In this document: positions 1-37,995 of the stretch, in pieces
Numbering within the stretch: position 1 is the first letter of the stretch
How the letters are laid out: each line of letters opens with the position of its first letter
Position numbers and translations under genes: made by a program
The notes under the pieces: model-generated
Database searches by the model: none
Told to the model about the DNA's origin: nothing
Seen by the model: only the letters and a program-made list of their open reading frames with translations
From: a virus
Lineage: Duplodnaviria; Heunggongvirae; Uroviricota; Caudoviricetes
IMG/VR virus record: IMGVR_UViG_2778261536_000006
Length of the DNA stretch: 39,497 bases
Strand: one strand, 5' to 3'

Positions 1-573
1 ATGTTTTGCGAAGAAAAAGTAGCTCAAATGGCTGCATACCTACTTCTTAAGCGAGGTGGGCGCATGGCATATCTGAAATTGATGAAGTTGCTCTATCTGT
101 CTAACCGCCAGTCGATTTTGAAGCATGGCAGGATGATCGGCGAAGATAGCCTTTACTCTATGAAATTTGGACCAGTCATGTCGAATACGCTGAACTTGAT
201 TCGCGGTAAGGCTGAAGGCATTGGTGACTACTGGTACAACTTGATAGAGACGAACGGGCATAATGTATCGTTGCGTTCAGATCCGAGGGAAATGGATGCA
301 GACGAGGTCTTTGATGAATTGAGTCGTGCAGATATCCGGATTTTAGATGAAATCTATTCTCGGTATGGGCATATGAACCGATTTGATCTCGCAAATATGA
401 CGCATTTAGAAAGCGTTTGTCCAGAGTGGCACGATCCTGGCAATTCTCGTAAGCCTATAGACCTGAAAGAAATGCTGATCAGTGAGGGTAAAAGCGAGGA
501 TGAGGCTAATCGCATAATTGGCAAAATGGAAGAATCTCAGAAACTTAAGGAATTTTCTTTGCAATTATCATGA
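1..573 (+). CDS. Panacea-domain (DUF4065, SocA/GepA-like) phage-associated protein, putative antitoxin
   Basis: 190-aa ORF with LKLMKLLYL and GPV motifs that I recognise as Panacea-like; stop overlaps the next ORF start (ATGA). Confidence 0.5.
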   Translation: MFCEEKVAQMAAYLLLKRGGRMAYLKLMKLLYLSNRQSILKHGRMIGEDSLYSMKFGPVMSNTLNLIRGKAEGIGDYWYNLIETNGHNVSLRSDPREMDADEVFDELSRADIRILDEIYSRYGHMNRFDLANMTHLESVCPEWHDPGNSRKPIDLKEMLISEGKSEDEANRIIGKMEESQKLKEFSLQLS

Positions 574-2883: not shown

Positions 2884-3242
2884 TTCTTATTCTCCGGTGC
2901 TTTTGGCATTACTGCCCAGTGAGTGATATTGACGTTTTCAAGGTCCCCGACCTGAAATGTCCACTGCCATTCTCCGGTTTCTTTTTGTCCCCAGGTGTAC
3001 CAGAGAGAACGCCAGCCAATTAGCCAGCCTTCTCCGTTAGCATCAAATAACAGAACACTTTCATTTGCTGGTGGCAGTTCAGCTGACACTGGTATTATTT
3101 TGTTTTCCAGTGCCGTACATTTAGCTTCAAGCGCATCGAATTTACGTACCAGGTACTCAGCATTTGTTTCGTTCACTTTCAGATCTCGCGGTACACATTT
3201 CCCGCGAAGAAACCCTTCCATTTCGAAAACATTCATGCGCAT
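2880..3242 (-). CDS. DUF551-like phage protein
   Basis: 120 aa with Trp-rich C-terminus ending ITHWAVMPKAPE, resembling the DUF551 signature. Confidence 0.4.
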   Translation of the reverse strand: MRMNVFEMEGFLRGKCVPRDLKVNETNAEYLVRKFDALEAKCTALENKIIPVSAELPPANESVLLFDANGEGWLIGWRSLWYTWGQKETGEWQWTFQVGDLENVNITHWAVMPKAPENKK

Positions 3243-3769
3243 TTGCGTAACTCCGATAACTCGTTAAAACGTTCCATAAACATCCCGTAGGCATGGCCTG
3301 GTGACAGTGGAATAACTTTGAACATCTCTGTCGCCGGGATACCTTCCAGTACAGGCCAGAAAGAGCCATCATCAAGCCCGAGATCGCGGCGTTCGGTTGC
3401 CAGCATAATGAGATCGGCATATTTCACTGGCGTGCTCATAACAGGAGGTAACCCGTATTTCTCACGGATTACGGCGTCTATTTTTTCTTCCATCCGTTTA
3501 TAGTCAGGAAGAAGGCGTTTCAGTGGTGCGGGGATGTCCTGGCAATATGCTTCTGTTGCATCATGCATTAACGCTTCAAAAGCAAATTCCTGCGGTACCA
3601 GCTGGCTGCAAAGCACCGCATGTTGGGCGACGCTGTAGAAGTGTGGAAGATGTCCTGCAAAGCGACAGATATTTGAAAGGGAAACCGCGATATCGTTAAT
3701 AACGATGTCGTCTTTATTTATCCTGTCATAATAAAAATGCTTCCCGGAAAAAGTTTTAATAAATGACAT
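3233..3769 (-). CDS. HD-domain phosphohydrolase (YfdR-like)
   Basis: HD-type motifs; start moved to the internal Met at 3769, which has GGAG 6 nt upstream (track ORF runs to 3796). Confidence 0.6.
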   Translation of the reverse strand: MSFIKTFSGKHFYYDRINKDDIVINDIAVSLSNICRFAGHLPHFYSVAQHAVLCSQLVPQEFAFEALMHDATEAYCQDIPAPLKRLLPDYKRMEEKIDAVIREKYGLPPVMSTPVKYADLIMLATERRDLGLDDGSFWPVLEGIPATEMFKVIPLSPGHAYGMFMERFNELSELRKCA

Positions 3770-3861
3770 TTTGTTCTCCACGTATATGCGCTGCACCGCG
3801 CTGAATTCGGGTAAAAGGAAGCCCTCACCGTCCGGCGATTATTGAGTCAATTACATTTCCA

Positions 3862-4260
3862 TAAATGCCCCCGTAGGGGCGGTTAGTTTCTCCACAAAAC
3901 AGAGAAGAACACCTGCGGTGGCAGCCGCCCGGATGGATTGGGTTATGAGCCCGTCGTCCGGTGATGCTCTTCTCTGTTTTGTAAAAAGGACGGTACCAGC
4001 CGGAAGCAAGGGTACAAGCTGGTACCGCCAAGACTACACACAGCATAAAGTTGTGGTGCCGGGTGCCTCCCGGTGCCTGGCGAAGGTTGCACACCAGGCG
4101 GGTGGGTATCCACAGAAGGTCGACTGTCAGCCTCAACCTTAACCCGCGTGCGCTGAGCCGCATTCACCACAACGCTAAGGATTCTCTCTGGTTGAAAATA
4201 CTTAGCTGTTATGTGCCTGTCTTTTCACCACTTCAGGCTCGGTGGTATCCTTTTAAGCCC
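3862..4260. other. GC-rich, hairpin-dense non-coding island (possible structured RNA)
   Basis: No protein-like ORF on either strand; perfect 15-bp inverted repeat 3894-3908/3968-3982, perfect 10-bp inverted repeat 3991-4000/4018-4027, further stems at 4075-4099 and 4116-4140, GGTGCC x3 at 4055-4077. Confidence 0.4.
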
Positions 4261-4282
4261 GTATACATAAAAGGAAAATCAA

Positions 4283-4528
4283 ATGACTTTTGATGAAAAA
4301 GAACTTGATAATGCAATTAATAAAATCATCGTAACGTCGCTCTTTTCCTGTCTCAGCGACACTCAGCAGAAACAGTTCTACGAATCGGCTTTCAACATGA
4401 TCGAGCGTTGTTGTTTCTGCGATGCCGACGAGTTACCTGAAAAAATCAGGAAACAGTTGGCTGATGCTCTTCGAGTGCGACTTTCTGACCAATTTTCTGA
4501 AATGTACTCTCCGAATTTGGACAAATAG
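4283..4528 (+). CDS. Hypothetical protein (81 aa), antisense to the early-left operon
   Basis: ATG with AAAGGAAAA upstream; overlaps the 3' end of the convergent ORF 4446-4721; coding status uncertain. Confidence 0.3.
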   Translation: MTFDEKELDNAINKIIVTSLFSCLSDTQQKQFYESAFNMIERCCFCDADELPEKIRKQLADALRVRLSDQFSEMYSPNLDK

Positions 4529-4721
4529 AAAAAGGCCATTTCCATTCAGGGTCTGATGGAAAGACTTCAGCCTGTTCCAAAGCACGGCGTAAAGAGAATA
4601 CAACTCCAGCCATAATCTGATGTTTCCCATTGGTCCAGCTATCGCCGCTCTGATCTACAGGAGCGGCTATGTCGTATGACCAAACGACTTCACCACTATT
4701 GTTTAAAATCTGGACTTTCAT
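4446..4721 (-). CDS. Hypothetical early protein (91 aa)
   Basis: ORF in operon orientation with GGAGG 12 nt upstream; overlaps the convergent plus-strand ORF; uncertain. Confidence 0.3.
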   Translation of the reverse strand: MKVQILNNSGEVVWSYDIAAPVDQSGDSWTNGKHQIMAGVVFSLRRALEQAEVFPSDPEWKWPFSICPNSESTFQKIGQKVALEEHQPTVS

Positions 4722-4729
4722 TTTGTTCT

Positions 4730-4951
4730 TTAACCTCCAGATTTCCGCGCATCTAAAGGCGCATTCTCATTTGGTGTGAACTGAATAGTTGTGCTGATAT
4801 TGATTAATGCCCCGACACACAAGACTACGCACTCAGAGCAGATAGCAACTTCATCTTTTCCGCCTTTGGCGATGATTTTTTTTGCCTGCAGCTCGTTTGC
4901 GCCACAAAACGAGCATGTGAAATAACGGTTCATTTGCGCTCTCTTACACAT
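4730..4951 (-). CDS. ClpX-type C4 zinc-finger (ZBD-like) small protein
   Basis: CSFCG...EVAICSECVVLC matches the CxxC...CxxC pattern and spacing of the ClpX N-terminal zinc-binding domain; first gene of the leftward operon. Confidence 0.5.
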   Translation of the reverse strand: MCKRAQMNRYFTCSFCGANELQAKKIIAKGGKDEVAICSECVVLCVGALINISTTIQFTPNENAPLDARKSGG

Positions 4952-5126
4952 AGTATTTAACGAATCATCCGGTCATTCATACGCCACCGGCGGCTACTTC
5001 GTGTTCGTCCTGACTGTTCGTTTTTGACATTTACTGACCGCTTACGACACATGCACCATGCACCGTGTTGCAACTAGATTTTGTTGTAATCCTGTAGTTG
5101 GTCTGGAACAAAAGATAAAATTAAAA

Positions 5127-5163
5127 TGCGATATACGCAAGTAATATTTTGCGAGATGTGCAA
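5127..5163. promoter_or_regulatory. Putative left operator sites (TTGCG/CGCAA half-site motifs)
   Basis: TGCGATATACGCAA (5127-5140) and TTGCGAGATGTGCAA (5149-5163) share half-sites with the cI-cro intergenic sites. Confidence 0.35.
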
Positions 5164-5175
5164 ATTATGGGTGAT

Positions 5176-5196
5176 AAAAAGCCACCTTTCGGTGGC
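5176..5196 (-). terminator. Rho-independent terminator downstream of the repressor gene
   Basis: Minus strand reads GCCACC-GAAA-GGTGGC followed by TTTTT, just 3' of the cI-like stop. Confidence 0.55.
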
Positions 5197-5216
5197 CGAT
5201 GGATGGGATATTGAAG

Positions 5217-5909
5217 TTAATTATGTCTCTTAAGGGTTTGCGACTGACTGATTAAGACCTTTCCAAAGACCATGAATCGGTGTTCGTTTTCGCTAGTAAT
5301 TCCCCATTCACGGTAAATCTGGTTATCAGAAATCACCAGCAGTTTGTCAGGAATCATTTGAAGTCTTTTAACGTATATTTTGTCATCAAAACCAAAGACA
5401 TATATACCATCACCATCAAACTGATTGATGCTGACATCAACGAAGATGAGATCTCCTGGCTCAATGGTTGGACACATACTGTCCCCACGAACGTTGATAA
5501 CTTTGATGTGATTGGCTGGTCGTCCGCCGAACATTGATACAGCATTATCAGTTCTGTATTCGATGGCATGAATCACATCAATGACATCACCGCCCTGGAT
5601 AAGGCCATTTCCCGCACTGGCACTGATATCCAACATTTCAATACGGAACACATCCTTCACCTGCGCAACATCCTCATCATTACTGTTTTTATATACAGTA
5701 TTACTTTTGAGGGCAGAGGTAAAGAGATCAGCAATATCAACACCTAAGCTCTTGGCAATATTACTCAGTGTTTGTTCGGTAAATTGTTTCTGCTTACCCG
5801 TTTCTAAGCGCGAGATGTTCGCCGCATCTACTCCTATTGCTTCAGCGAGATCGGCGATTTTCATGTTCTTCGCTTGGCGAAGTTGTCTGACTCGTTTTCC
5901 TATGTTCAT
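5217..5909 (-). CDS. CI-like phage repressor (HTH-XRE plus S24 LexA-like peptidase domain)
   Basis: 230 aa; N-terminal HTH and C-terminal S24 motifs (GDSM...KRL); divergent from the Cro-like gene. Confidence 0.85.
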   Translation of the reverse strand: MNIGKRVRQLRQAKNMKIADLAEAIGVDAANISRLETGKQKQFTEQTLSNIAKSLGVDIADLFTSALKSNTVYKNSNDEDVAQVKDVFRIEMLDISASAGNGLIQGGDVIDVIHAIEYRTDNAVSMFGGRPANHIKVINVRGDSMCPTIEPGDLIFVDVSINQFDGDGIYVFGFDDKIYVKRLQMIPDKLLVISDNQIYREWGITSENEHRFMVFGKVLISQSQTLKRHN

Positions 5910-5929
5910 GCGTTTATTACATTTCTTTA

Positions 5930-5992
5930 TTGCGTGATAAGCAAATCAACTTGCGCAAAATACTTGCGTGAAATAACATGCATAACGCGCAA
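5930..5992. promoter_or_regulatory. Operator/promoter region between cI-like and cro-like genes
   Basis: TTGCGTGATAAGCAA (5930-5944), perfect palindrome TTGCGCAA (5951-5958) and TTGCG...CGCAA (5964-5992) in the 97-bp divergent intergenic region. Confidence 0.5.
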
Positions 5993-6006
5993 TATTTGGA
6001 GGATAT

Positions 6007-6267
6007 ATGCAATCACCATTACGAAATGTGCGTAAGGCGCATGGTTTCACTTTGCAGCATGTTGCTGCGGGTGTTCAAGTCAATCCAGCGACGTTGAGTC
6101 GTATTGAGAGGCTGGAGCAGATTCCATCTATCGAGCTTGCAGAACGTTTAGCCAATTTTTTTAAGGGTGAAATCAGCGAAATGCAGATTCTTTATCCGGC
6201 ACGTTTTCAATCTAGCCAAAACCAGAATGGGTTTAAACCACAGGAACAGGAGGTGAACCGTGGGTAA
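6007..6267 (+). CDS. Cro-like HTH (XRE family) regulator
   Basis: 86 aa with N-terminal HTH; divergent from repressor; GGAGG 4 nt upstream. Confidence 0.7.
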   Translation: MQSPLRNVRKAHGFTLQHVAAGVQVNPATLSRIERLEQIPSIELAERLANFFKGEISEMQILYPARFQSSQNQNGFKPQEQEVNRG

Positions 6268-7155: not shown

Positions 7156-8097
7156 ATGAGCACTAAATTAACCGGCTATGTATGGGATGGTTGCGCAGCG
7201 TCAGGCATGAAATTATCCAGCGTGGCAATTATGGCCCGCCTGGCTGATTTCAGTAATGACGAAGGTGTGTGCTGGCCATCAATTGAAACCATTGCCCGCC
7301 AGATTGGCGCGGGGATGAGTACCGTCAGAACGGCTATCGCACGGCTGGAAGCAGAAGGCTGGTTAACGCGTAAGGCGCGTCGCCAGGGTAACCGCAATGC
7401 GTCGAATGTTTATCAGCTTAACGTTGCGAAGCTTCAGGCAGCGGCATTTTCTCAACTGTCAGATTCTGACCCGTCAAAATCTGACGCATCAAAATCTGAC
7501 CCGTCAAAATTTGATGCGTCGAAATCTGGCAAAAAAGCGGGTTTTCACCCGTCAGAATCTGGCGGGGATCCGTCAGTAAAATCAAAACATGATCCGTCAG
7601 ATAAAAAACCTTCTCGTCCGGACGCTTCGCAACCGGACACGCAGACGGATGAACAGGATTTTTTAACTCGCCATCCTGATGCGGTTGTATTCAGCCCTAA
7701 AAAGCGCCAGTGGGGAACGCAGGATGATTTGACCTGCGCACAGTGGCTCTGGAAAAAAATCATCGCCCTGTACGAGCAGGCTGCCGAATGTGACGGCGAG
7801 GTGGTTCGTCCCAAAGAACCGAACTGGACAGCCTGGGCAAACGAAATTCGCCTGATGTGTGTGCAGGATGGTCGTACTCACAAACAAATCTGCGAGATGT
7901 ACAGCCGCGTCAGCCGCGATCCGTTCTGGTGCCGTAACGTGCTCAGCCCGTCGAAGTTGCGGGAAAAATGGGATGAGCTTTCCCTGCGCTTATCACCGTC
8001 CGTCAGCACGTACACCGAAAAACGCGAAGACCCGTACTTCAAATCCAGTTACGACAACGTGGACTACAGCCAGATCCCGGCAGGATTCAGGGGGTGA
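7156..8097 (+). CDS. Replication initiator (O-like, winged-HTH N-terminus) containing origin iterons
   Basis: 313 aa; HTH-like N-terminal domain; repeat-rich linker encoded by tandem DNA repeats; position after cro/cII as in lambdoid replication modules. Confidence 0.6.
   Translation: MSTKLTGYVWDGCAASGMKLSSVAIMARLADFSNDEGVCWPSIETIARQIGAGMSTVRTAIARLEAEGWLTRKARRQGNRNASNVYQLNVAKLQAAAFSQLSDSDPSKSDASKSDPSKFDASKSGKKAGFHPSESGGDPSVKSKHDPSDKKPSRPDASQPDTQTDEQDFLTRHPDAVVFSPKKRQWGTQDDLTCAQWLWKKIIALYEQAAECDGEVVRPKEPNWTAWANEIRLMCVQDGRTHKQICEMYSRVSRDPFWCRNVLSPSKLREKWDELSLRLSPSVSTYTEKREDPYFKSSYDNVDYSQIPAGFRG
7465..7606 (+). repeat. Iteron array (putative ori) inside the replication initiator gene
   Basis: Four tandem 15-bp units TCTGAC(C/G)C(G/A)TCAAAA at 7465-7524, then a degenerate unit and three spaced CCGTCAG copies to about 7606. 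Confidence 0.55.
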
Positions 8098-8099
8098 TC

Positions 8100-8588
8100 A
8101 TGAGTCTTTTGAATGAAGTTCAGAAATTCATTGAAGCCCATCCGGGGTGTACTTCCGGAGACATTGCGGATGCTTTTGCAGGTTACTCACGGCAGCGCGT
8201 TCTGCAGTCAGCAAGCAAGTTACGTCAGAGTGGGCGTGTGGCTCACCGTTGTGAAGGAGATACACGCAGACATTTCTCGCGCCTGACTGAGAGAGCGCAG
8301 GAGCCGGAACCACAACCAGTTCGTGAAACCAGACCTGTGCGCAATTTCTATGTTGGCACTAACGACCCGCAGGTGATTTTGTGCCTGACTCGCCAGGCGG
8401 AAGAACTGGAGTCCAGGGGCTTATACCGTCGAGCTGCAACGGTGTGGATGGAGGCATTCCGTGAAAGCCACTCCCAGCCAGAACGAAACAATTTTCTGGC
8501 GCATCGTGAGCGGTGCTTACGGAAAAGCAGCAAGCGCGCTGCATCGGGTGAAGAGTGGTATCTGTCAGGGAATTACGTGGGGGCTTAA
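8100..8588 (+). CDS. PerC-family transcriptional regulator-like protein
   Basis: C-terminal AEELESRGLYRRAATVWMEAF resembles the PerC motif; ATG at 8100 with GGGGG 5 nt upstream (track starts at GTG 8094). Confidence 0.45.
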   Translation: MSLLNEVQKFIEAHPGCTSGDIADAFAGYSRQRVLQSASKLRQSGRVAHRCEGDTRRHFSRLTERAQEPEPQPVRETRPVRNFYVGTNDPQVILCLTRQAEELESRGLYRRAATVWMEAFRESHSQPERNNFLAHRERCLRKSSKRAASGEEWYLSGNYVGA

Positions 8589-9241
8589 TGAGTAATAAAT
8601 ATTGCCAGGCGCTGGTGGAACTGCGGAACAAACCAGCCCATGAACTGAAGGAAGTGGGCGATCAGTGGCGCACGCCGGACAACATTTTCTGGGGAATTAA
8701 CACCCTGTTTGGCCCGTTTGTTCTGGATCTGTTCACCGACGGTGATAACGCCAAATGTGCCGCGTATTACACGGCGGAAGACAACGCGCTGGCGCATGAC
8801 TGGTCAGAACGTCTTGCGGAGCTTAAAGGTGCTGCCTTTGGTAATCCCCCATACAGCCGCGCCAGTAAGCATGAGGGGCAATACATCACCGGCATGCGTT
8901 ACATCATGAAACATGCCAGTGCCATGCGTGATAAGGGCGGGCGCTATGTTTTCCTGATCAAAGCTGCCACCAGCGAAGTGTGGTGGCCGGAAGATGCAGA
9001 CCATATTGCTTTTATTCGCGGGCGTATTGGTTTTGAACTGCCTGCCTGGTTTATCCCGAAAGACGAGAAGCAGGTGCCGACAGGCGCTTTCTTCGCTGGT
9101 GCTATTGCTGTTTTCGATAAGACCTGGAAGGGACCGGCAATCAGCTACATCGGGCGCGATGAACTTGAGGCATGTGGTGAGGCGTTTCTGGCGCAGGTTC
9201 GCCAGCAGGCGGAAAAACTGGTCAGGGAGATGGCGGCATGA
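8588..9241 (+). CDS. Phage Dam-like N6-adenine DNA methyltransferase
   Basis: NPPY catalytic motif (FGNPPYS); start taken at ATG 8588, which overlaps the upstream stop. Confidence 0.75.
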   Translation: MSNKYCQALVELRNKPAHELKEVGDQWRTPDNIFWGINTLFGPFVLDLFTDGDNAKCAAYYTAEDNALAHDWSERLAELKGAAFGNPPYSRASKHEGQYITGMRYIMKHASAMRDKGGRYVFLIKAATSEVWWPEDADHIAFIRGRIGFELPAWFIPKDEKQVPTGAFFAGAIAVFDKTWKGPAISYIGRDELEACGEAFLAQVRQQAEKLVREMAA

Positions 9242-11789: not shown

Positions 11790-12542
11790 ATGAACCTTGA
11801 AGCCTTACCAAAATATTACTCCCCAAAATCTCCAAAATTGAGCGATGACGCACCGGCGACAGGCTCAGGTGGTTTAACGATTACGGATGTGATGGCTGCG
11901 CAGGGGATGGTGCAGTCGAAAGCACCGCTTGGGTTTGCCTTATTCCTGGCAAAAGTTGGTGTTCAGGATCCTCAATTTGCGATTGAAGGTCTGCTCAATT
12001 ACGCGATGGCACTGGATAACCCGACATTGAACAAATTGAGTGAAGAAACCCGGTTACAGATCATCCCTTACCTTGTGAATTTTGCCTTTGCTGATTATTC
12101 CAGGTCTGCGGCAAGTAAGGCTCGCTGTGAGCATTGTGCTGGTACTGGATTTCATAATGTATTGCGCGAAGTGGTGAAACACTCCAGAAGCGGGGAATCT
12201 GTTATCAAGGAAGAGTGGGTGAAGGAACTATGTCAGCATTGTCATGGTAAGGGAGAAGTCAGCACAGCGTGCAGAGGGTGTAAGGGTAAAGGTATTGTCC
12301 TGGATGAAAAAAGGACCCGGCTTCATGGCACGCCTGTTTATAAGATTTGTGGGCGTTGCAATGGAAACCGGTTTAGCCGTTTACCAACCACACTGGCGCG
12401 GCATCATGTCCAGAAGCTGGTACCAGACCTGACGGATTATCAGTGGTACAAAGGATATGCAGATGTCATTGATAAACTGGTTACAAAGTGCTGGCAGGAA
12501 GAAGCATATGCAGAGATACAATTGAGAAAGGTGACAAGATAA
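11790..12542 (+). CDS. Late-gene antiterminator Q-like protein
   Basis: Four CxxC zinc-finger-like motifs and close resemblance to Qin-prophage QuuQ as I recall it; start at ATG 11790 with GGAG upstream (track ORF starts earlier). Confidence 0.7.
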   Translation: MNLEALPKYYSPKSPKLSDDAPATGSGGLTITDVMAAQGMVQSKAPLGFALFLAKVGVQDPQFAIEGLLNYAMALDNPTLNKLSEETRLQIIPYLVNFAFADYSRSAASKARCEHCAGTGFHNVLREVVKHSRSGESVIKEEWVKELCQHCHGKGEVSTACRGCKGKGIVLDEKRTRLHGTPVYKICGRCNGNRFSRLPTTLARHHVQKLVPDLTDYQWYKGYADVIDKLVTKCWQEEAYAEIQLRKVTR

Positions 12543-12573: not shown

Positions 12574-12602
12574 TTGCATTTTTCAAAAAATATGGATAAG
12601 AT
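12574..12602 (+). promoter_or_regulatory. Putative late promoter pR' (Q-dependent)
   Basis: TTGCAT (12574-12579), 17-bp spacer, TAAGAT (12597-12602), just downstream of Q. Confidence 0.45.
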
Positions 12603-12650
12603 TTTCCCAACGATGGGCTTTGTATGTCTACCGTTGATAAGATTTAGGAA

Positions 12651-12672
12651 CCCGCCACTGAGCGGGTTTTTT
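12651..12672 (+). terminator. Rho-independent terminator tR' (short 6S-like late leader)
   Basis: CCCGC-CACTGA-GCGGG followed by TTTTTT, about 50 nt downstream of the putative pR'. Confidence 0.7.
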
Positions 12673-12794
12673 GTACCTGTAAACTTGGTGCAGTACAGTA
12701 AACACGCTGGTGGTCGTGAATACTGACTTTTTATCTTGCTGGATTTTTAGACAAGAGTTATTGGTATGTCATGTTAACCAGAAGGGAAAAAGAC

Positions 12795-12998
12795 ATGCTA
12801 AAACAGCAAGATATGACAGAAACCGCCGCCGCAGTCCTTCATTTCTTACCTGCTGACAAGTGGGTAACGCCACGCATGATGACGAGAACTACCGGAGTAA
12901 GCGAAGCCCGGTGCCAGTTAATACTGACTCAGTTAGTTCTGGCGGGTCTGGCGAAGGATAACGGCGGGTACGGGAATAAATTCAGACGCTGCCAGTAA
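12795..12998 (+). CDS. Small hypothetical protein (possible winged-helix)
   Basis: 67 aa from ATG 12795 with AAGGGA upstream (track ORF from 12771); between tR' and the methyltransferase. Confidence 0.35.
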   Translation: MLKQQDMTETAAAVLHFLPADKWVTPRMMTRTTGVSEARCQLILTQLVLAGLAKDNGGYGNKFRRCQ

Positions 12999-13148
12999 TG
13001 GCGGTTTCCTGCTGTGAAAATGGGCGGCTGGTGGGTGTTGGTAGCACCTGCCAGCCATTCGCTCATGCTTACTGGTCACAAGCGAACCACGGCCCACTGC
13101 TTTAGCGCAAAAGCAGAGTGAGCCTACCAGAGTTACGCTTACTGATCC

Positions 13149-14201
13149 ATGAAAAATACTGTAAAAATAAACAGTGTTGATTTAATCAACGCTGATTGCC
13201 TGCATTTTATTCAGTCCCTGCCTGATGATTCCATTGACCTGATTGTTACCGATCCGCCTTACTTCAAGGTGAAACCTAACGGTTGGGACAATCAGTGGAA
13301 AGGGGATGAAGATTACCTTAAGTGGCTGGACCACTGTCTGGCCCAGTTCTGGCGGGTGTTGAAACCTGCCGGAAGCCTTTACCTGTTCTGTGGGCATCGC
13401 CTAGCATCTGATATTGAGATCATGATGCGTGAACGTTTCAACGTGCTTAACCATATCATCTGGGCGAAGCCGTCCGGACGTTGGAATGGGTGTAATAAAG
13501 AAAGTCTGCGCGCATATTTTCCTGCCACAGAGCGCGTTCTGTTTGCTGAACATTACCAGGGGCCATATCGCGGCAAAAGTGACGGCTATGCGGCAAAAGA
13601 AAGGGAACTCAAACAGCACATAATGGCACCGCTGATATCGTATTTCAGGGATGCTCGTGCCGAACTGGGTATAACGGCAAAACAAATTGCCGAAGCCACA
13701 GGTAAGAAAAATATGGTTTCCCACTGGTTTGGTGCCAGTCAGTGGCAGTTGCCGAATGAGGCTGACTATCGGAAGTTACAGGCACTGTTTTCCCGTATAG
13801 CGGCAGAGAAGTTTCAGGAACAACAACTGGAACAACCACACCACCAGCTGGTGGCATCTTATGATTCACTGAATCGTAAATATTCTGAATTGCTGGATGA
13901 GTTTAAATCTCTCCGGCGCTATTTCTCCGTATCAGTCTCCGTGCCTTATACCGATGTCTGGATGCATAAACCCGTTCAGTTCTACCCGGGGAAACATCCG
14001 TGTGAGAAACCGGCGGATATGCTCAGGCAAATAATCAATGCCAGTAGTCGACCAGGTGATCTGGTTGCTGATTTTTTTATGGGATCCGGTTCCACAATAA
14101 AAGCAGCAATGGCGCTGGGGCGTCGGGCCTTAGGTGTTGAGCTTGAGTCAGAGCGGTTTAATCAGACAGTGAAAGAGATAAACGAGCTGGTGGGGAAATA
14201 A
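13149..14201 (+). CDS. DNA methyltransferase (N6-adenine/N4-cytosine, beta-class)
   Basis: 350 aa with N-terminal DPPY catalytic motif and C-terminal AdoMet-binding FMGSGST. Confidence 0.8.
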   Translation: MKNTVKINSVDLINADCLHFIQSLPDDSIDLIVTDPPYFKVKPNGWDNQWKGDEDYLKWLDHCLAQFWRVLKPAGSLYLFCGHRLASDIEIMMRERFNVLNHIIWAKPSGRWNGCNKESLRAYFPATERVLFAEHYQGPYRGKSDGYAAKERELKQHIMAPLISYFRDARAELGITAKQIAEATGKKNMVSHWFGASQWQLPNEADYRKLQALFSRIAAEKFQEQQLEQPHHQLVASYDSLNRKYSELLDEFKSLRRYFSVSVSVPYTDVWMHKPVQFYPGKHPCEKPADMLRQIINASSRPGDLVADFFMGSGSTIKAAMALGRRALGVELESERFNQTVKEINELVGK

Positions 14202-14207
14202 TCTGGT

Positions 14208-14230
14208 GGCCACGTTGCGTGGCCTTTTTA
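14208..14230 (+). terminator. Rho-independent terminator after the methyltransferase
   Basis: GGCCACG-TTG-CGTGGCC followed by TTTTT. Confidence 0.65.
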
Positions 14231-14276
14231 TTTCCAACACAGCACCCGCAAATATCGCGAGGTGAGAGATGACGAA

Positions 14277-14603
14277 ATGCCTCATAACCCAAATACCTGG
14301 CTGGACTTGGTCCAGAGCTGGTGGCGTGGAGACACACCGCTGGGTGCAGTGATTATGTCGATCGTTATGGCTGGTTTGCGCATCGCCTATTTTGGCGGTG
14401 GTGGTGGCTGGAAGCGAAAAACGCTCGAGATTTTGCTATGTGGCGCTCTGACGCTGACCTTTGCATCCGCTCTTGAATATGTCGGATGGCCTAAATCGCT
14501 TTCTGTTGCCATTGGTGGTGGCGTGGGGCTGATCGGTGTCGATGCTATTCGTGGGGCTGCAATGCGAGTAATCGGTAACAAATTTGGTAGCTCGAAGGAG
14601 TAA
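14277..14603 (+). CDS. Holin (lambda S-like)
   Basis: About 108 aa, three hydrophobic segments and charged C-terminus, immediately upstream of the endolysin; start ambiguous (GTG 14262 or ATG 14277). Confidence 0.65.
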   Translation: MPHNPNTWLDLVQSWWRGDTPLGAVIMSIVMAGLRIAYFGGGGGWKRKTLEILLCGALTLTFASALEYVGWPKSLSVAIGGGVGLIGVDAIRGAAMRVIGNKFGSSKE

Positions 14604-36849: not shown

Positions 36850-36901
36850 TACTGTGTTTGTATACAGTATTATTTTTAACTGTATAGATAAACAGTGTCA
36901 A
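36850..36901 (-). promoter_or_regulatory. Tandem LexA (SOS) boxes overlapping a promoter for the DinI-like gene
   Basis: TACTGTGTTTGTATACAGTA (36850-36869) and AACTGTATAGATAAACAGTG (36878-36897), both CTGT-N8-ACAG; minus-strand TTGACA at 36896-36901 with an A/T-rich -10 about 17 bp downstream. Confidence 0.7.
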
Positions 36902-37995
36902 GAGGCCTTATTTCTGCTCCTTTGGAGCTCTTCAAAACGATTATGTAAAGATTTCGGATACAGTTCGGTATATACCTGCCATAGCACGTTTAATGAACGA
37001 TGCCCTGTAACCTGGGCGACTTCCTCAATACTAAAACCAGCCTCAAATAAGCGACTTGCCCCTTCTCTACGCAAATCATGGTATCGCAGATCTTTAATAC
37101 CTAATTTGCTTCTTACCCTCTGGAATCCCGCAGTAACAGAAGTGCTGTTATATGGAAAAATGAATTCTGATTTTTTGGGTTGTCGTTGGACGATATCCCA
37201 GGCTTCCCCAAGCAAGGCTACTTTCATATGGTTGCCTTCCTTTTTACGTGGATCTTTCCTGTCTCTTACGAGTATGGATTTTTGTTCCTGATCGAGATCC
37301 TCCCATCGTAATCGGCATACTTCACCGATTCGCATACATGACCACACAGAAAATTTGAGGATATCAACGAACGGAATTTTTGAGCATTTATGTGTAGATC
37401 GTTGTTGAAGACCTTCAATGAGCATGTCCAGTTCATCAGATGCCGGTCTACGATTACGACGATTTGATTTACCAATTAAACCAAGTTTAAGTAGATATGG
37501 ACGAGCGGCTTTTGCTGGGTTTGATGTGTAATTAATTCCATATACAGGTTTGGCAGCATCCAGAACACTGCCAAGATAACTAACATCGTGGCTAACTGTA
37601 GCTGGACCTGCACCAGCGTTGTTTCTTAGCCTGCAATGTTCAATTACGTCATTTTCTGTCAGTTCAGATAGTTTGATCGCGGAGATGTCACTATCCATAA
37701 GCAGTTCCAGCACATATCTTTTAGTACGGCCTGCTTTACCTCCGGCATTTGGGTCATTTAAATATTTGTGTAGTAAGTCACGGACTGTAAGTCCGTCAAC
37801 TGCATTTGATGATGGAATGCCATATAGATCTAATTCCATCACTTTCTGTGTGCCCCATGTTTTGGCATGAGCATGTTTAGGGAATGTTTTACTTTCCCTG
37901 TAAGTGATAACACCTTTTTCTTTGATAATCACATTACAGCGATAGCGTGGTGTGCCATCGGATTTTAGTCGTTTCTCTATGTTATAGTACGCCAT
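36898..37995 (-). CDS. Tyrosine integrase (DusA-associated type)
   Basis: 365 aa with C-terminal tyrosine-recombinase motifs; start is 88 bp from the dusA start codon, transcribed divergently. Confidence 0.85.
   Translation of the reverse strand: MAYYNIEKRLKSDGTPRYRCNVIIKEKGVITYRESKTFPKHAHAKTWGTQKVMELDLYGIPSSNAVDGLTVRDLLHKYLNDPNAGGKAGRTKRYVLELLMDSDISAIKLSELTENDVIEHCRLRNNAGAGPATVSHDVSYLGSVLDAAKPVYGINYTSNPAKAARPYLLKLGLIGKSNRRNRRPASDELDMLIEGLQQRSTHKCSKIPFVDILKFSVWSCMRIGEVCRLRWEDLDQEQKSILVRDRKDPRKKEGNHMKVALLGEAWDIVQRQPKKSEFIFPYNSTSVTAGFQRVRSKLGIKDLRYHDLRREGASRLFEAGFSIEEVAQVTGHRSLNVLWQVYTELYPKSLHNRFEELQRSRNKAS

Follow-up and report, generated by a model that had tools for sequence, protein, structure and literature searches.

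A conserved structured RNA and a small predicted winged-helix protein accompany a probable late methyltransferase of the M.EcoGII family in a widespread phage cassette

The DNA analyzed here (the window) is the whole 39,497-nucleotide stretch of the Caudoviricetes record IMGVR_UViG_2778261536_000006. In it, the Q gene (PF03589) is followed by a hairpin with a U-run, an ORF of 67 amino acids, a leader RNA of ~140 nt, a methyltransferase gene, a terminator, and a lambda-family holin gene, beyond which lie a lysozyme gene and an Rz gene (Table 1). A first-pass annotation made from the sequence had described the two ORFs, their slot between Q/tR′ and the lysis genes, and the terminator that closes the methyltransferase gene, and each of these is found where it was placed; the location of the methyltransferase in a prophage is likewise confirmed. 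The cassette is very common phage cargo between the late switch Q and the lysis genes. No nuclease gene adjoins the methyltransferase, whose neighbors are Q, the 67-amino-acid gene, and the holin gene, and an adjoining nuclease gene is also absent in 1720a-02, an Stx2a phage, SfV, and Ayreon. The gap of 150 nt between the two genes, which the first-pass annotation passed over, is a conserved structured RNA rather than empty spacer.

Table 1. Cassette features and related genes, with positions in the window
Feature	Position	Strand	Basis or remark
Methyltransferase of the PF05869 Dam family	8555-9241	+	E 1.1e-45; early-right region; start codon approximate
Q gene	ends at 12542	+	PF03589
Candidate late promoter pR′ (TTGCAT, 17 nt, TAAGAT)	12574-12602	+	By position only, just past the Q stop codon
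tR′-like intrinsic terminator, hairpin and U-run	12646-12675	+	-13.5 kcal/mol, z -2.3
Small-protein gene, 67 aa, predicted winged helix (phrog_331, function not known in PHROG)	12795-12998	+	ORF, dN/dS, AlphaFold2
Hairpin with the small-ORF TAA stop in its loop, then UUUCCUG	12985-13008	+	-11.9 kcal/mol, z -2.5
Structured leader RNA of the methyltransferase	13012-13148	+	Covariance model R1 matches 13008-13153
Leader domain I: helix P2 (AUGGGC:GCUCAU) around variable hairpin P3 (13026-13037 with 13045-13056)	13020-13066	+	Covariation
Leader hairpin P5 (GGCCCACUGCUU...AAGCAGAGUGAGCC)	13091-13124	+	Covariation
Leader helix P6: segment 3 GGUCAcAAGCGAAC (13074-13087) with segment 4 GUUaCGCUUacUGAUC (13132-13147)	13074-13147	+	Minimum-free-energy fold
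Methyltransferase gene, 350 aa, beta-class N6-adenine, M.EcoGII family (very probable)	13149-14201	+	PF01555, DPPY, FxGxG
Intrinsic terminator ending the cassette	14208-14233	+	-12.5 kcal/mol, z -3.0; terminator annotated in SfV and Ayreon
Holin gene, lambda family	14262-14603		

The candidate pR′ agrees with the consensus at 7 of 12 positions and is absent from the list returned by our promoter scan. The site equivalent to the tR′-like hairpin was annotated as a terminator by the depositors of SfV and Ayreon; sub-threshold Rfam matches around 12600-12780 (STnc130, Trp-leader, and similar families) reflect this hairpin. At the other end of the cassette, the terminator consists of a stem of seven pairs, six of them G-C (14208-14224), followed by the U-run TTTTTATTT. 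The hairpin that holds the small-ORF stop codon makes a weak terminator in the window; its stem varies in sequence among loci while complementarity is kept, as judged by eye from alignments, and a long U-run follows it in the type-B and Stx2a-phage copies, making these terminator-like. Our consensus scan for sigma-70-like promoters, which a weak or non-sigma-70 promoter can escape, returned three sites against 2.9 expected by chance, none of them upstream of either gene on the + strand. In loci that lack an adjacent small ORF there is no room for a promoter, since the leader begins ~20 nt past a strong terminator. Since the methyltransferase gene lies behind Q and the tR′-like hairpin and has no promoter-like site above chance, late expression, as the first-pass annotation proposed, is the natural reading; the same position suggests that the gene would be expressed only late and would be silent in the lysogen.

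Is the cassette a moron, as it had been called? In lambda, Q, pR′, and tR′ directly precede S, and the cassette is extra DNA between genes that are otherwise adjacent, its flanks being drawn from three Q families and two holin families; Ayreon and mEp460 carry further inserts in the same slot. Its base composition is not foreign, with a GC content of 0.46-0.50 compared with 0.42-0.53 in the end of Q and the lysis genes. The term thus holds in the loose sense of cargo with its own terminator, but a promoter of its own was not found by the scan and the characterized homologues of the enzyme are silent in lysogens (PMC5778455).

On the evidence of its sequence, the 67-amino-acid ORF encodes a real protein. 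Its dN/dS of 0.02-0.32 across 35 pairwise comparisons indicates purifying selection, and in an E. coli region 99% identical to this one PGAP annotates the ORF with the identical frame and start codon (WP_000917724.1, hypothetical). AlphaFold2 predicts a winged helix (pLDDT 87.5, pTM 0.75) of topology H-H-H-beta-beta, with helices at residues 4-17, 26-33, and 37-49 and strands at 53-55 and 63-65. The winged-helix-like character suggested in the first-pass annotation is borne out by this model and by sub-threshold matches to TrmB, MarR (MarR_2), and DprA_WH in 13-16 of the 21 members of the small-protein family, and no Pfam or NCBIfam family matches at threshold. PHROG assigns the protein to phrog_331. 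PADLOC, which recognizes only the methyltransferase in the cassette, has no defense-system model that matches this ORF. Helix 3, RCQLILTQL, is invariant.

The top Foldseek matches of the predicted structure are all winged helices and are generic. The best is the Zalpha domain 1qbj_A (TM 0.85, rmsd 1.1 A over 64 columns, E 3e-3, 16% identity), IclR, MarR, and TrmB winged helices score nearly as high, and poxvirus E3-type proteins are among the matches in a viral library search. Like the Zalpha domains of ADAR1, poxvirus E3, and PKZ, which are ~65 amino acids long and bind Z-DNA or Z-RNA, the protein would be a minimal winged helix. We nonetheless reject a Zalpha identity, as the residues that contact the Z form are not kept. 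In a MAFFT alignment, Asn173 corresponds to Gln41, Tyr177 to an invariant Thr45, Pro192-Pro193 of the wing to Gly-Asn, and Trp195 to Phe or Tyr, a comparison that is provisional in that it uses what we take to be the ADAR1 Zalpha sequence.

Of 5426 complete E. coli genomes, 1918 (about a third) contain the cassette region, which is also present in phages SfV, mEp460, and cdtI and in Stx2 phages. Stx2a phages carry it between Q and stx2AB, with the leader on the late transcript upstream of stx2AB. In the closest phage homologues of M.EcoGII (93%), the order is Q, small ORF, leader, methyltransferase, then tRNAs and stx2AB. The leader always adjoins the start of the methyltransferase gene, except in a group of loci in which a 41-amino-acid ORF is inserted. 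The first-pass annotation also passed over the fixed pairing of the small ORF with the methyltransferase across many enterobacterial genera.

It is possible that each of the two genes is a moron in its own right and that they happen to travel as neighbors; the winged-helix protein would then be a lysogen-expressed transcription factor or anti-defense protein with its own terminator and no functional relation to the methyltransferase. The terminator-like form of the small-ORF hairpin in many copies would fit such independence, as would the exchange of small-ORF alleles: two very different alleles (types A and B) stand on identical leader and methyltransferase sequence, and the allele does not co-vary with the leader. 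In addition, 48 of the 143 viral loci with enough upstream sequence have the leader and methyltransferase and no detectable adjacent small ORF, and some loci carry more distant winged-helix ORFs upstream of the terminator that precedes the leader. However, the two genes occur together in 23 of 24 loci from different genera, at a spacing of 142-152 nt, while the Q and holin families around them change; no promoter-like site lies ahead of the small ORF; and among the loci examined the small ORF was never found apart from the leader. We therefore regard independent travel as unlikely, although it is an alternative to be taken seriously. The role of the winged-helix protein is uncertain, and that it acts on the cassette module is a tentative suggestion.

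The product of the larger gene matches PF01555 (N6_N4_Mtase) over its full length (E 2e-42; 145.9 bits, where the cut-off is 26.7; profile positions 1-220 of 221). Both DPPY (residues 35-38, nt 13251-13262) and FxGxG, here FMGSG (residues 310-314, nt 14076-14090), are intact, so the description of the gene as encoding a DPPY-type methyltransferase stands and alignment gives no sign of a catalytically dead enzyme. The order of the motifs, with DPPY followed by the target-recognition region and the SAM-binding FxGxG at the C terminus, is that of the beta class. End to end, over 349 residues and with no domain changes, the enzyme shares about 81% identity with M.EcoGII, and the target-recognition region (M.EcoGII residues 160-237) shares 77%; the reconstructed M.EcoGII ancestor Anc291 is closer, at 89%. 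These identities are approximate, as both reference sequences were machine-read, with visible errors, from a supplementary PDF table (PMC11551740). Compared with M.EcoGII/M.EcoGI (E. coli O104:H4 C227-11; GenBank EGT69837.1), which are also prophage-borne, it has 350 rather than 349 amino acids and the same motif order, and it is ~19% divergent overall. We consider it very probable that the gene encodes a late methyltransferase of the M.EcoGII family. The family is well known and the enzyme is not new. The earlier label "orphan enzyme" is right in that no nuclease gene adjoins, but it understates what is known, because the close relative M.EcoGII is a characterized non-specific adenine methyltransferase. 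Our search found no close relative with a solved structure, the best PDB sequence matches covering only the conserved N- and C-terminal motifs; for the M.EcoGII family, models and gel filtration indicate a dimer with a four-helix-bundle recognition domain inserted in the Rossmann fold (PMC11551740).

M.EcoGII and M.EcoGI methylate up to 99% of adenines (PMC5778455). From its similarity to these enzymes, the allele in the window probably also methylates adenine without sequence specificity, although non-specificity has been shown only for M.EcoGII, M.EcoGI, and reconstructed ancestors (PMC5778455; PMC11551740). Alternatively, the orphan enzyme could be sequence-specific (Dam-like, motif-specific, or relaxed like M.HaeV/M.CsaII) and would then confer narrower protection or act in epigenetic regulation. 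In the region matching the target-recognition domain of M.EcoGII, 23% of residues differ, and most PF01555 enzymes with solved structures are specific (RsrI, MboIIA, CcrM, DpnA); the public name is also "site-specific DNA-methyltransferase", but this name is automatic. The end-to-end identity with M.EcoGII argues against specificity, as does the finding that M.EcoGI, identical to M.EcoGII at 333 of 349 residues, is non-specific too (PMC5778455). Further, Anc291, when expressed, is highly active on bulk DNA and RNA, with an initial DNA methylation rate of 27.9 compared with 11.1 for M.EcoGII (PMC11551740), and REBASE-based annotation in a study of O111 strains predicts "nonspecific" for homologues ~93% similar to M.EcoGI/II (PMC6602927). 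A sequence-specific enzyme therefore seems improbable.

Upstream of the methyltransferase, model R1 scores 143.3 bits at the present locus and 61-147 bits in 96 of 100 loci. Leaders are 57-91% identical where four-fold degenerate sites are 26-42% identical in most pairs. Covariation shows this RNA to be structured: 86.4% of cells are paired, compared with 78.1% after shuffling; changes on both sides occur in 23 of 36 pairs; and the covariation score is 0.302, compared with at most 0.108 when slid. The leader folds better on the + strand than on the - strand (z -2.8 compared with -1.5), and, since the compensatory changes include G-U pairs, an RNA read on the + strand is favored. Within domain I, P3 shows changes on both sides in 10 of its 12 pairs, where as many as five pair types occur at one position, and the region 13012-13092 folds with a z of -3.55. 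P5 is similarly variable (8 of 12 pairs changed on both sides; 86-87% of cells paired).

The 3′ part of the leader can adopt two folds. P6 hides UGAUC, which lies at -6 to -2 from the methyltransferase AUG, and a competing helix, P4, joins 13058-13063 to 13081-13086. The minimum-free-energy fold (-56.9 kcal/mol) pairs UGAUC, whereas the fold with P4 (-55.4 kcal/mol) frees UGAUCCAUG. P6 covaries at three pairs (AU/GC/GU) and P4 covaries as well; in neither helix do pairs with changes on both sides exceed those in shuffles (196/500 for P6 and 126/500 for P4), and alignment A5 is fitted to the structure of the covariance model. As the covariation of P1, P4, and P6 lies largely in differences between two or three major clades, it could be inherited rather than repeatedly selected. 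Measured without an alignment, the P6 duplex has a stability of -10.8 kcal/mol compared with -5.2 kcal/mol for shuffled sequences (mean z -2.8 over 62 distinct leaders), and the GGUCAC segment is missing wherever a leader lacks UGAUC.

This RNA matches no described family. None of the 4227 families of Rfam 15 matches 13000-13148 at E up to 10, nor do four divergent leader copies give a match at E up to 1. In the literature that we searched, the conserved leader strings were not found, and in accounts of M.EcoGII we saw neither an upstream winged-helix gene nor a leader RNA described, nor a location behind Q; studies of the Q-to-stx region (PMC6266700; PMC4587872) contain nothing on regulation of the cassette methyltransferase. 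Two candidates for the spacer were rejected. A small peptide could begin at the invariant AUG in AAAUGGGCG, from which ORFs of 33-58 codons extend, but the frame is not kept from locus to locus, and the indels do not come in multiples of three. AgvB/AsxR anti-sRNAs and the Pas sRNA are 51-84 nt long with terminators (PMC4104026; Pas sRNA preprint), and the AgvB/AsxR type sits downstream of the moron coding sequence (PMC4104026); neither report mentions a methyltransferase.

More broadly, the spacer might not act in cis but might be a trans-acting sRNA or sponge cut from the late transcript, or a DNA element such as a protein-binding site or a recombination linker. Many Hfq-bound sRNAs lie downstream of pR′ in lambdoid prophages (PMC4104026; Pas sRNA preprint), the leader persists at one locus (L033) that has lost the methyltransferase, and mosaic junctions fall at the edges of the variable core of the small ORF. 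A DNA element is disfavored by the compensatory changes with G-U pairs noted above. Moreover, the 3′ part of the leader pairs with the bases directly upstream of the AUG, and this pairing is kept while the sequence changes; the leader abuts the methyltransferase start, apart from the insertions of the 41-amino-acid ORF; and it has no terminator or U-tail of its own. A spacer that does not act in cis accordingly has a low probability in our judgment, and we lean toward the leader being a cis-regulatory RNA.

How might these parts work together? We think it likely that the cassette supplies a gene whose late expression depends on Q and whose product hypermethylates progeny DNA, and that translation of this toxic enzyme is held back by a brake. 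Transcription would require read-through from pR′ by Q-modified RNA polymerase, as indicated by the lack of a detectable promoter of the cassette's own and its place behind the tR′-like terminator, and would thus be confined to late lytic growth rather than the lysogen. The enzyme would then methylate the N6 of adenine with little or no sequence specificity, as its identity to a characterized enzyme suggests; replicating and packaged progeny DNA would therefore be refractory to many restriction enzymes of the next host that are blocked by m6A. In the leader, a segment resembling the 3′ end of 16S rRNA (GGUCAC/GAUCAC) can pair with UGAUC and flanking bases upstream of the AUG. UGAUC may stand in for a normal Shine-Dalgarno sequence, and the nearly isoenergetic alternative fold, by freeing it, could provide a brake or switch on translation of an enzyme that is toxic when overexpressed. 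The weakest step concerns the winged-helix protein, which may be a nucleic-acid-binding accessory, for example a regulator of the leader or of cassette DNA that binds through helix 3.

M.EcoGII and M.EcoGI are borne on prophages, are unexpressed in the lysogen, and slow growth when expressed constitutively (PMC5778455). That the cassette instead serves the lysogen, with low methyltransferase expression altering host genes or protecting the chromosome as in the M.EcoGIII system of an Stx phage, is very improbable: phage methyltransferases can reshape host transcription, according to the M.EcoGIII work cited in PMC6602927, and the cassette is very common among E. coli genomes, but constitutive expression of M.EcoGI and M.EcoGII is deleterious, the gene is preceded by a terminator and by a leader in which the ribosome-binding region is hidden, and SMRT sequencing of two O111 STEC strains with M.EcoGI/GII homologues detected no methylation attributable to these and no additional methylated motifs (PMC6602927).

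The proposed late cassette resembles known systems in several respects. Like riboswitches, ribosomal-protein leaders, and attenuators with their 1:2, 2:3, and 3:4 helices, the leader has an aptamer-like P1-P2-P3 region followed by a segment with two possible partners, one upstream (P4) and the other the ribosome-binding region (P6), and its two folds are nearly isoenergetic as in riboswitch-type leaders. Unlike translational riboswitches, it has no Rfam match and sequesters UGAUC rather than GGAGG. It is conceivable, though we would put it no higher, that the leader belongs to an undescribed class of cis-regulatory RNA, a riboswitch or one responsive to a protein or to ribosomes, that gates translation through the non-canonical UGAUC. 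In that case the 67-amino-acid protein, Zalpha-like in its predicted fold, may be the trans partner, or ribosomes terminating on the small ORF 14 nt upstream may flip the switch. Another possibility is feedback of the enzyme on its leader, since members of its family methylate RNA as well. By analogy, the arrangement recalls the C proteins of type II restriction-modification systems, as a gene for a putative small DNA-binding protein directly precedes, in the same orientation, a modification gene that needs timing. The C proteins, which belong to systems with a nuclease, are dimers of the Xre helix-turn-helix type and bind C-boxes in the promoter of their own gene; in contrast, the cassette protein is a predicted winged helix with no Pfam match at threshold, and no nuclease is present.

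Although M.EcoGII is a widely used laboratory tool, the literature that we consulted says little of its natural biology beyond its being a silent prophage gene that is probably switched on at induction. The present analysis shows a native setting of the family, a slot common to SfV, mEp460, cdtI, and Stx2 phages that by its position would be Q-dependent and late, and the leader and winged-helix protein could explain how a phage handles a toxic and indiscriminate enzyme. Should the leader prove a genuine switch, it would be a new regulatory RNA that in Stx2a phages shares a transcript with the Shiga toxin genes. Otherwise, the finding is that of an ordinary cargo gene, correctly read.

Finally, the second orphan methyltransferase that had been claimed for this prophage is present. 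Members of the Dam family are GATC-specific. Like the cassette enzyme, this one is a phage orphan adenine methyltransferase, of a type thought to protect phage DNA from restriction. Unlike the cassette gene, the Dam-type gene has no leader RNA or winged-helix partner that we could see; it belongs to another family and lies in the early-right region, whereas the cassette enzyme is encoded in the late operon.

The first-pass annotation placed two ORFs and a closing terminator between Q and the holin in this lambdoid prophage, described the methyltransferase as an orphan and noted a second methyltransferase elsewhere in the prophage. Its account of the region is correct: the features lie where it put them, no nuclease gene occurs among the cassette neighbors and the second enzyme belongs to the PF05869 Dam family. 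As it stood, the finding is ordinary, a well-characterized enzyme family in its usual genomic setting. Our analysis adds that the small ORF goes with the methyltransferase as a conserved unit and that the apparent spacer between them is a structured leader RNA. This leader is the part of the cassette that merits experiment.

Features of the prophage and of the slot between Q and the holin
Feature	Position	Strand	Remarks
SocA/Panacea antitoxin-domain ORF	1-573	+	from left edge
CI-like repressor, CII-like protein, HTH-domain replication-region protein			early-right/late regions
PF05869 Dam-type methyltransferase	8555-9241	+	early-right region
KilA-N and DUF968 genes, then Q (PF03589)	Q end 12542		
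Candidate promoter (TTGCAT, 17 nt, TAAGAT)	12574-12602		3′ of Q stop; weak, 7/12 consensus positions
Hairpin and U-run	12646-12675	+	-13.5 kcal/mol
67-aa ORF	12795-12998	+	
Variable small-ORF stretches	12828-12908, 12951-12995	+	residues 12-38, 53-67
Hairpin with small-ORF TAA stop in loop	12985-13008	+	
Conserved structured leader RNA	13008-13153	+	covariance model, 143 bits
350-aa methyltransferase ORF	13149-14201	+	
G+C-rich hairpin and T-run	14208-14233	+	3′ of methyltransferase
Lambda-family holin, lysozyme, Rz, HNH endonuclease, P27-type terminase			after cassette
Tyrosine integrase	36898-37995	-	near right end

By sequence, the methyltransferase is a member of the known M.EcoGII family. 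On alignment it is not catalytically dead, the outcome that the first-pass annotation named as refuting its reading: it matches PF01555 over its full length and carries DPPY (residues 35–38) and FMGSG (310–314) in the motif order of the beta class; solved structures align with it at the conserved ends only. The E. coli O104:H4 enzyme M.EcoGII (GenBank EGT69837.1, 349 aa) methylates adenine non-specifically (PMC11551740). In BLASTP against a machine-read M.EcoGII sequence that has a few evident errors (Supplementary Table S1, PMC11551740), 281 of 349 positions are identical (about 81%), end to end; identity is 89% over the catalytic part at the N-terminus and 77% in the recognition-domain region as assigned in PMC11551740. 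Identity is also 89% to the machine-read sequence of Anc291, an ancestral reconstruction whose DNA activity, when expressed, exceeds that of M.EcoGII (Table S3, PMC11551740). M.EcoGII methylates up to 99% of adenines in vitro, and its constitutive expression slows growth; both it and its near-twin M.EcoGI are prophage-borne and unexpressed in normal growth, and Murray et al. suggested that their genes are turned on at induction (PMC5778455). From this homology, the window enzyme would be expected to methylate adenines non-specifically.

The methyltransferase is conserved as a unit with the small ORF. When the small-ORF alignment was searched against one genome per species, 24 loci were recovered (Mangrovibacter, Plesiomonas, Providencia, Proteus, Kluyvera, Citrobacter, Salmonella, Klebsiella, Buttiauxella, Scandinavium and others); an M.EcoGII-like gene (58–93% identical) lies 3′ of the small ORF in 23 of them, and 142–152 nt separate the small-ORF stop from the methyltransferase start. 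Of 5426 complete E. coli genomes, 1918 have matches to the 1.8-kb region, with at least 80% of it present in 1013 of them; it also matches 42 phage records, such as SfV (orf47/orf48), mEp460, cdtI, Ayreon and Stx2c phages. Because of this wide occurrence and because the flanking families vary (Q is PF03589, PF06530 or PF06323; the holin is of family 3_1 or 2_1), the cassette is a mobile unit in the slot 3′ of pR′. The phage proteins nearest M.EcoGII (93%) are those of phage 1720a-02 and many Stx2a phages, where Q is followed by the small ORF, a gap of 151 nt, the methylase, three tRNAs and stx2AB.

Several arrangements of the slot were also seen. In Stx2a-converting phages (Stx2_EH2201, 3152–6182 of locus L264), the cassette is part of the late transcript from pR′, directly 5′ of stx2AB and the tRNA genes. 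Some relatives (Ayreon, 1673–2356 of locus L002; mEp460; E. coli matches H6, H7 and H11) have an insert of ~650 bp between tR′ and the small ORF; in Ayreon this insert has a terminator of its own and holds two small ORFs of 38 and 141 aa, so the slot takes further cargo. In one gut Enterobacteriaceae genome (3148–3547 of locus L033), the methyltransferase is absent, and an unrelated 62-aa ORF comes after a truncated small ORF and a retained leader (100 bits).

The small ORF is a real gene: PGAP gives it the same start, 63–67 aa homologues occur in many Enterobacterales (part of them automatically named "TrmB family") and dN/dS inside allele types is 0.02–0.32, with 28–84% difference at synonymous sites. 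A GAAGGGA stretch lies 5′ of its ATG. It falls in PHROG 331 (function unknown), and no match was found in Pfam or NCBIfam at threshold. The encoded protein is predicted to be a winged helix: AlphaFold2, using a 21-sequence alignment, gives a helix-helix-helix-hairpin topology (pLDDT 87.5), and Foldseek matches to this model are winged helices only, with the ADAR1 Zα domain at the top (TM 0.85, E 3e-3) and IclR, TrmBL2, MarR and the SelB mRNA-binding domain close behind. A Zα identity was provisionally rejected, as the contact residues are unconserved and the equivalent of Tyr177 is an invariant Thr. Invariant in the family are the nine N-terminal residues MLKQQDMTE and helix 3, RCQLILTQL; residues 12–38 and the C-terminal wing (53–67) are wholly different between allele types, of which at least three replace one another while the flanking DNA is otherwise identical. 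An exact-prefix count over 80 viral contigs with methyltransferases at least 99% identical gave 61 of type A and 7 of type B; of seven contigs left unclassified, most have variants of these types in the start region, and three are 5′-truncated. The family's unusual conservation pattern suggests a protein in which one surface is fixed and another diversifies.

Conservation of the spacer exceeds that of both coding regions: methyltransferase four-fold degenerate sites are 26–42% identical in all pairs but the closest, near saturation, and the spacer is 57–91% identical. RNAalifold and single-sequence folding favor the + strand (z -2.8 versus -1.5 for the - strand). After 149 further divergent viral loci had been added, 49 non-redundant copies were used for a covariance model, which detects the leader in 96 of 100 loci, at 61–147 bits. 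In the model alignment, whose fitting to the covariance model biases it in favor of structure, 86.4% of cells are paired (shuffles, 78.1%), both partners vary in 23 of 36 pairs, covariation scores 0.302 (at most 0.108 with slid partners) and as many as five pair types occur at a position of the P3 hairpin. We consider the signal real because of the slide control and because the sequence variety of P3 was already seen before fitting. P2 and P3, which with P1 make up domain I, and P5 (13091–13124) are RNA helices. A conserved peptide encoded by the leader was ruled out, since reading frames differ between loci. No Rfam family matches the window leader or four of its divergent copies, its conserved strings were not found in the literature searched, and we could not find a description of such a structured leader with covariation support.

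Such methyltransferases are also preceded by the leader in loci that lack a detectable small ORF, 48 of the 143 viral loci whose upstream sequence was long enough; there a strong terminator is followed directly by the leader. Nine loci with both genes gave no leader match in a sequence-profile search, and related loci have a shortened leader. The shortened form (loci L248, L253 and relatives, viral contigs) keeps domain I and lacks P5, and relatives with both genes give no or weak matches to full-length models. In one clade (viral contigs L157, L159, L161 and L177; about 1225–1500), a 41-aa, zinc-ribbon-like ORF with two CxxC pairs lies between the leader and the methyltransferase start.

How might the leader act? 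GGAGG is absent upstream of the methyltransferase AUG, and CUGAUCYAUG is conserved at the start. In this stretch UGAUC, at -6 to -2, is complementary to GAUCA in the 3′ end of 16S rRNA (GAUCACCUCCUUA) and may be placed so as to pair with it. Helix P6, which is part of the minimum-free-energy fold, can form between segment 3 (13074–13087; GGUCAC plus AAGCGAAC, with GAUCAC for GGUCAC in Providencia-type copies) and segment 4 (13132–13147; GUUACGCUU..UGAUC). P6 is kept despite sequence change (AAGCG:CGCUU, CAGGC:GCCUG, CGGGC:GCCCUG, GGA.AACC:GGUU.UCC), three of its pairs switch among A-U, G-C and G-U, and over 62 distinct leaders it scores -10.8 versus -5.2 kcal/mol for shuffled partners (mean z -2.8). 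Alternatively, segment 3 pairs with segment 2, which overlaps P2, to form P4 (13058–13063 with 13081–13086; UUCGCU:AGCGAA), which covaries too. In the window, the fold with UGAUC paired has -56.9 kcal/mol and the P4 fold, which frees UGAUCCAUG, -55.4 kcal/mol. Alternative folds so arranged are those of a translational attenuator or of the expression platform of a riboswitch. Because variation in P1, P4 and P6 largely reflects the separation of a few clades, and counts of covarying pairs in P6 and P4 are not above those in shuffles, we regard a translational switch as likely rather than demonstrated.

This switch might be triggered by a metabolite, by the winged-helix protein, by ribosomes that complete the small ORF or by the RNA-methylating enzyme itself. 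The small-ORF stop, 14 nt 5′ of the leader, falls within a hairpin loop. The stem of this hairpin varies between loci with complementarity kept, as judged by eye; a long, terminator-like U-run follows it in type-B and Stx2a-phage copies, and UUU only in the window. Enzymes of the M.EcoGII type also methylate RNA (PMC5778455).

Gene order, motifs, family membership, conservation and helices P2, P3 and P5 are established by the analysis; the function of the cassette can be envisioned as follows. Promoter-like sites above chance were not found in the cassette region, terminators lie upstream, and loci where the leader abuts a terminator leave no room for a promoter, all of which, with its position, argue that the cassette would be transcribed late only, in a Q-dependent manner. 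Non-specific adenine methylation would then shield progeny DNA broadly from m6A-sensitive restriction. The leader could serve as a brake that limits how much of a toxic enzyme is translated, and the small winged-helix protein may act on the small ORF/leader/methyltransferase module.

The site equivalent to the hairpin at 12646–12675 is a terminator in the depositors' annotation of SfV and Ayreon. The tR′ hairpin is symmetric enough for termination in both directions, and a minus-strand promoter-like site (12772 to 12743, 9/12) is directed at it. An STnc130 match below threshold (27.7 bits, E 0.16) covers 12640–12776 on the minus strand, which may encode an antisense small RNA. The Dam-type gene overlaps the 3′ end of a PerC-like ORF (8094–8588), and a reference region within NZ_CM173849, 99% identical, has a LexA-family gene in its place.
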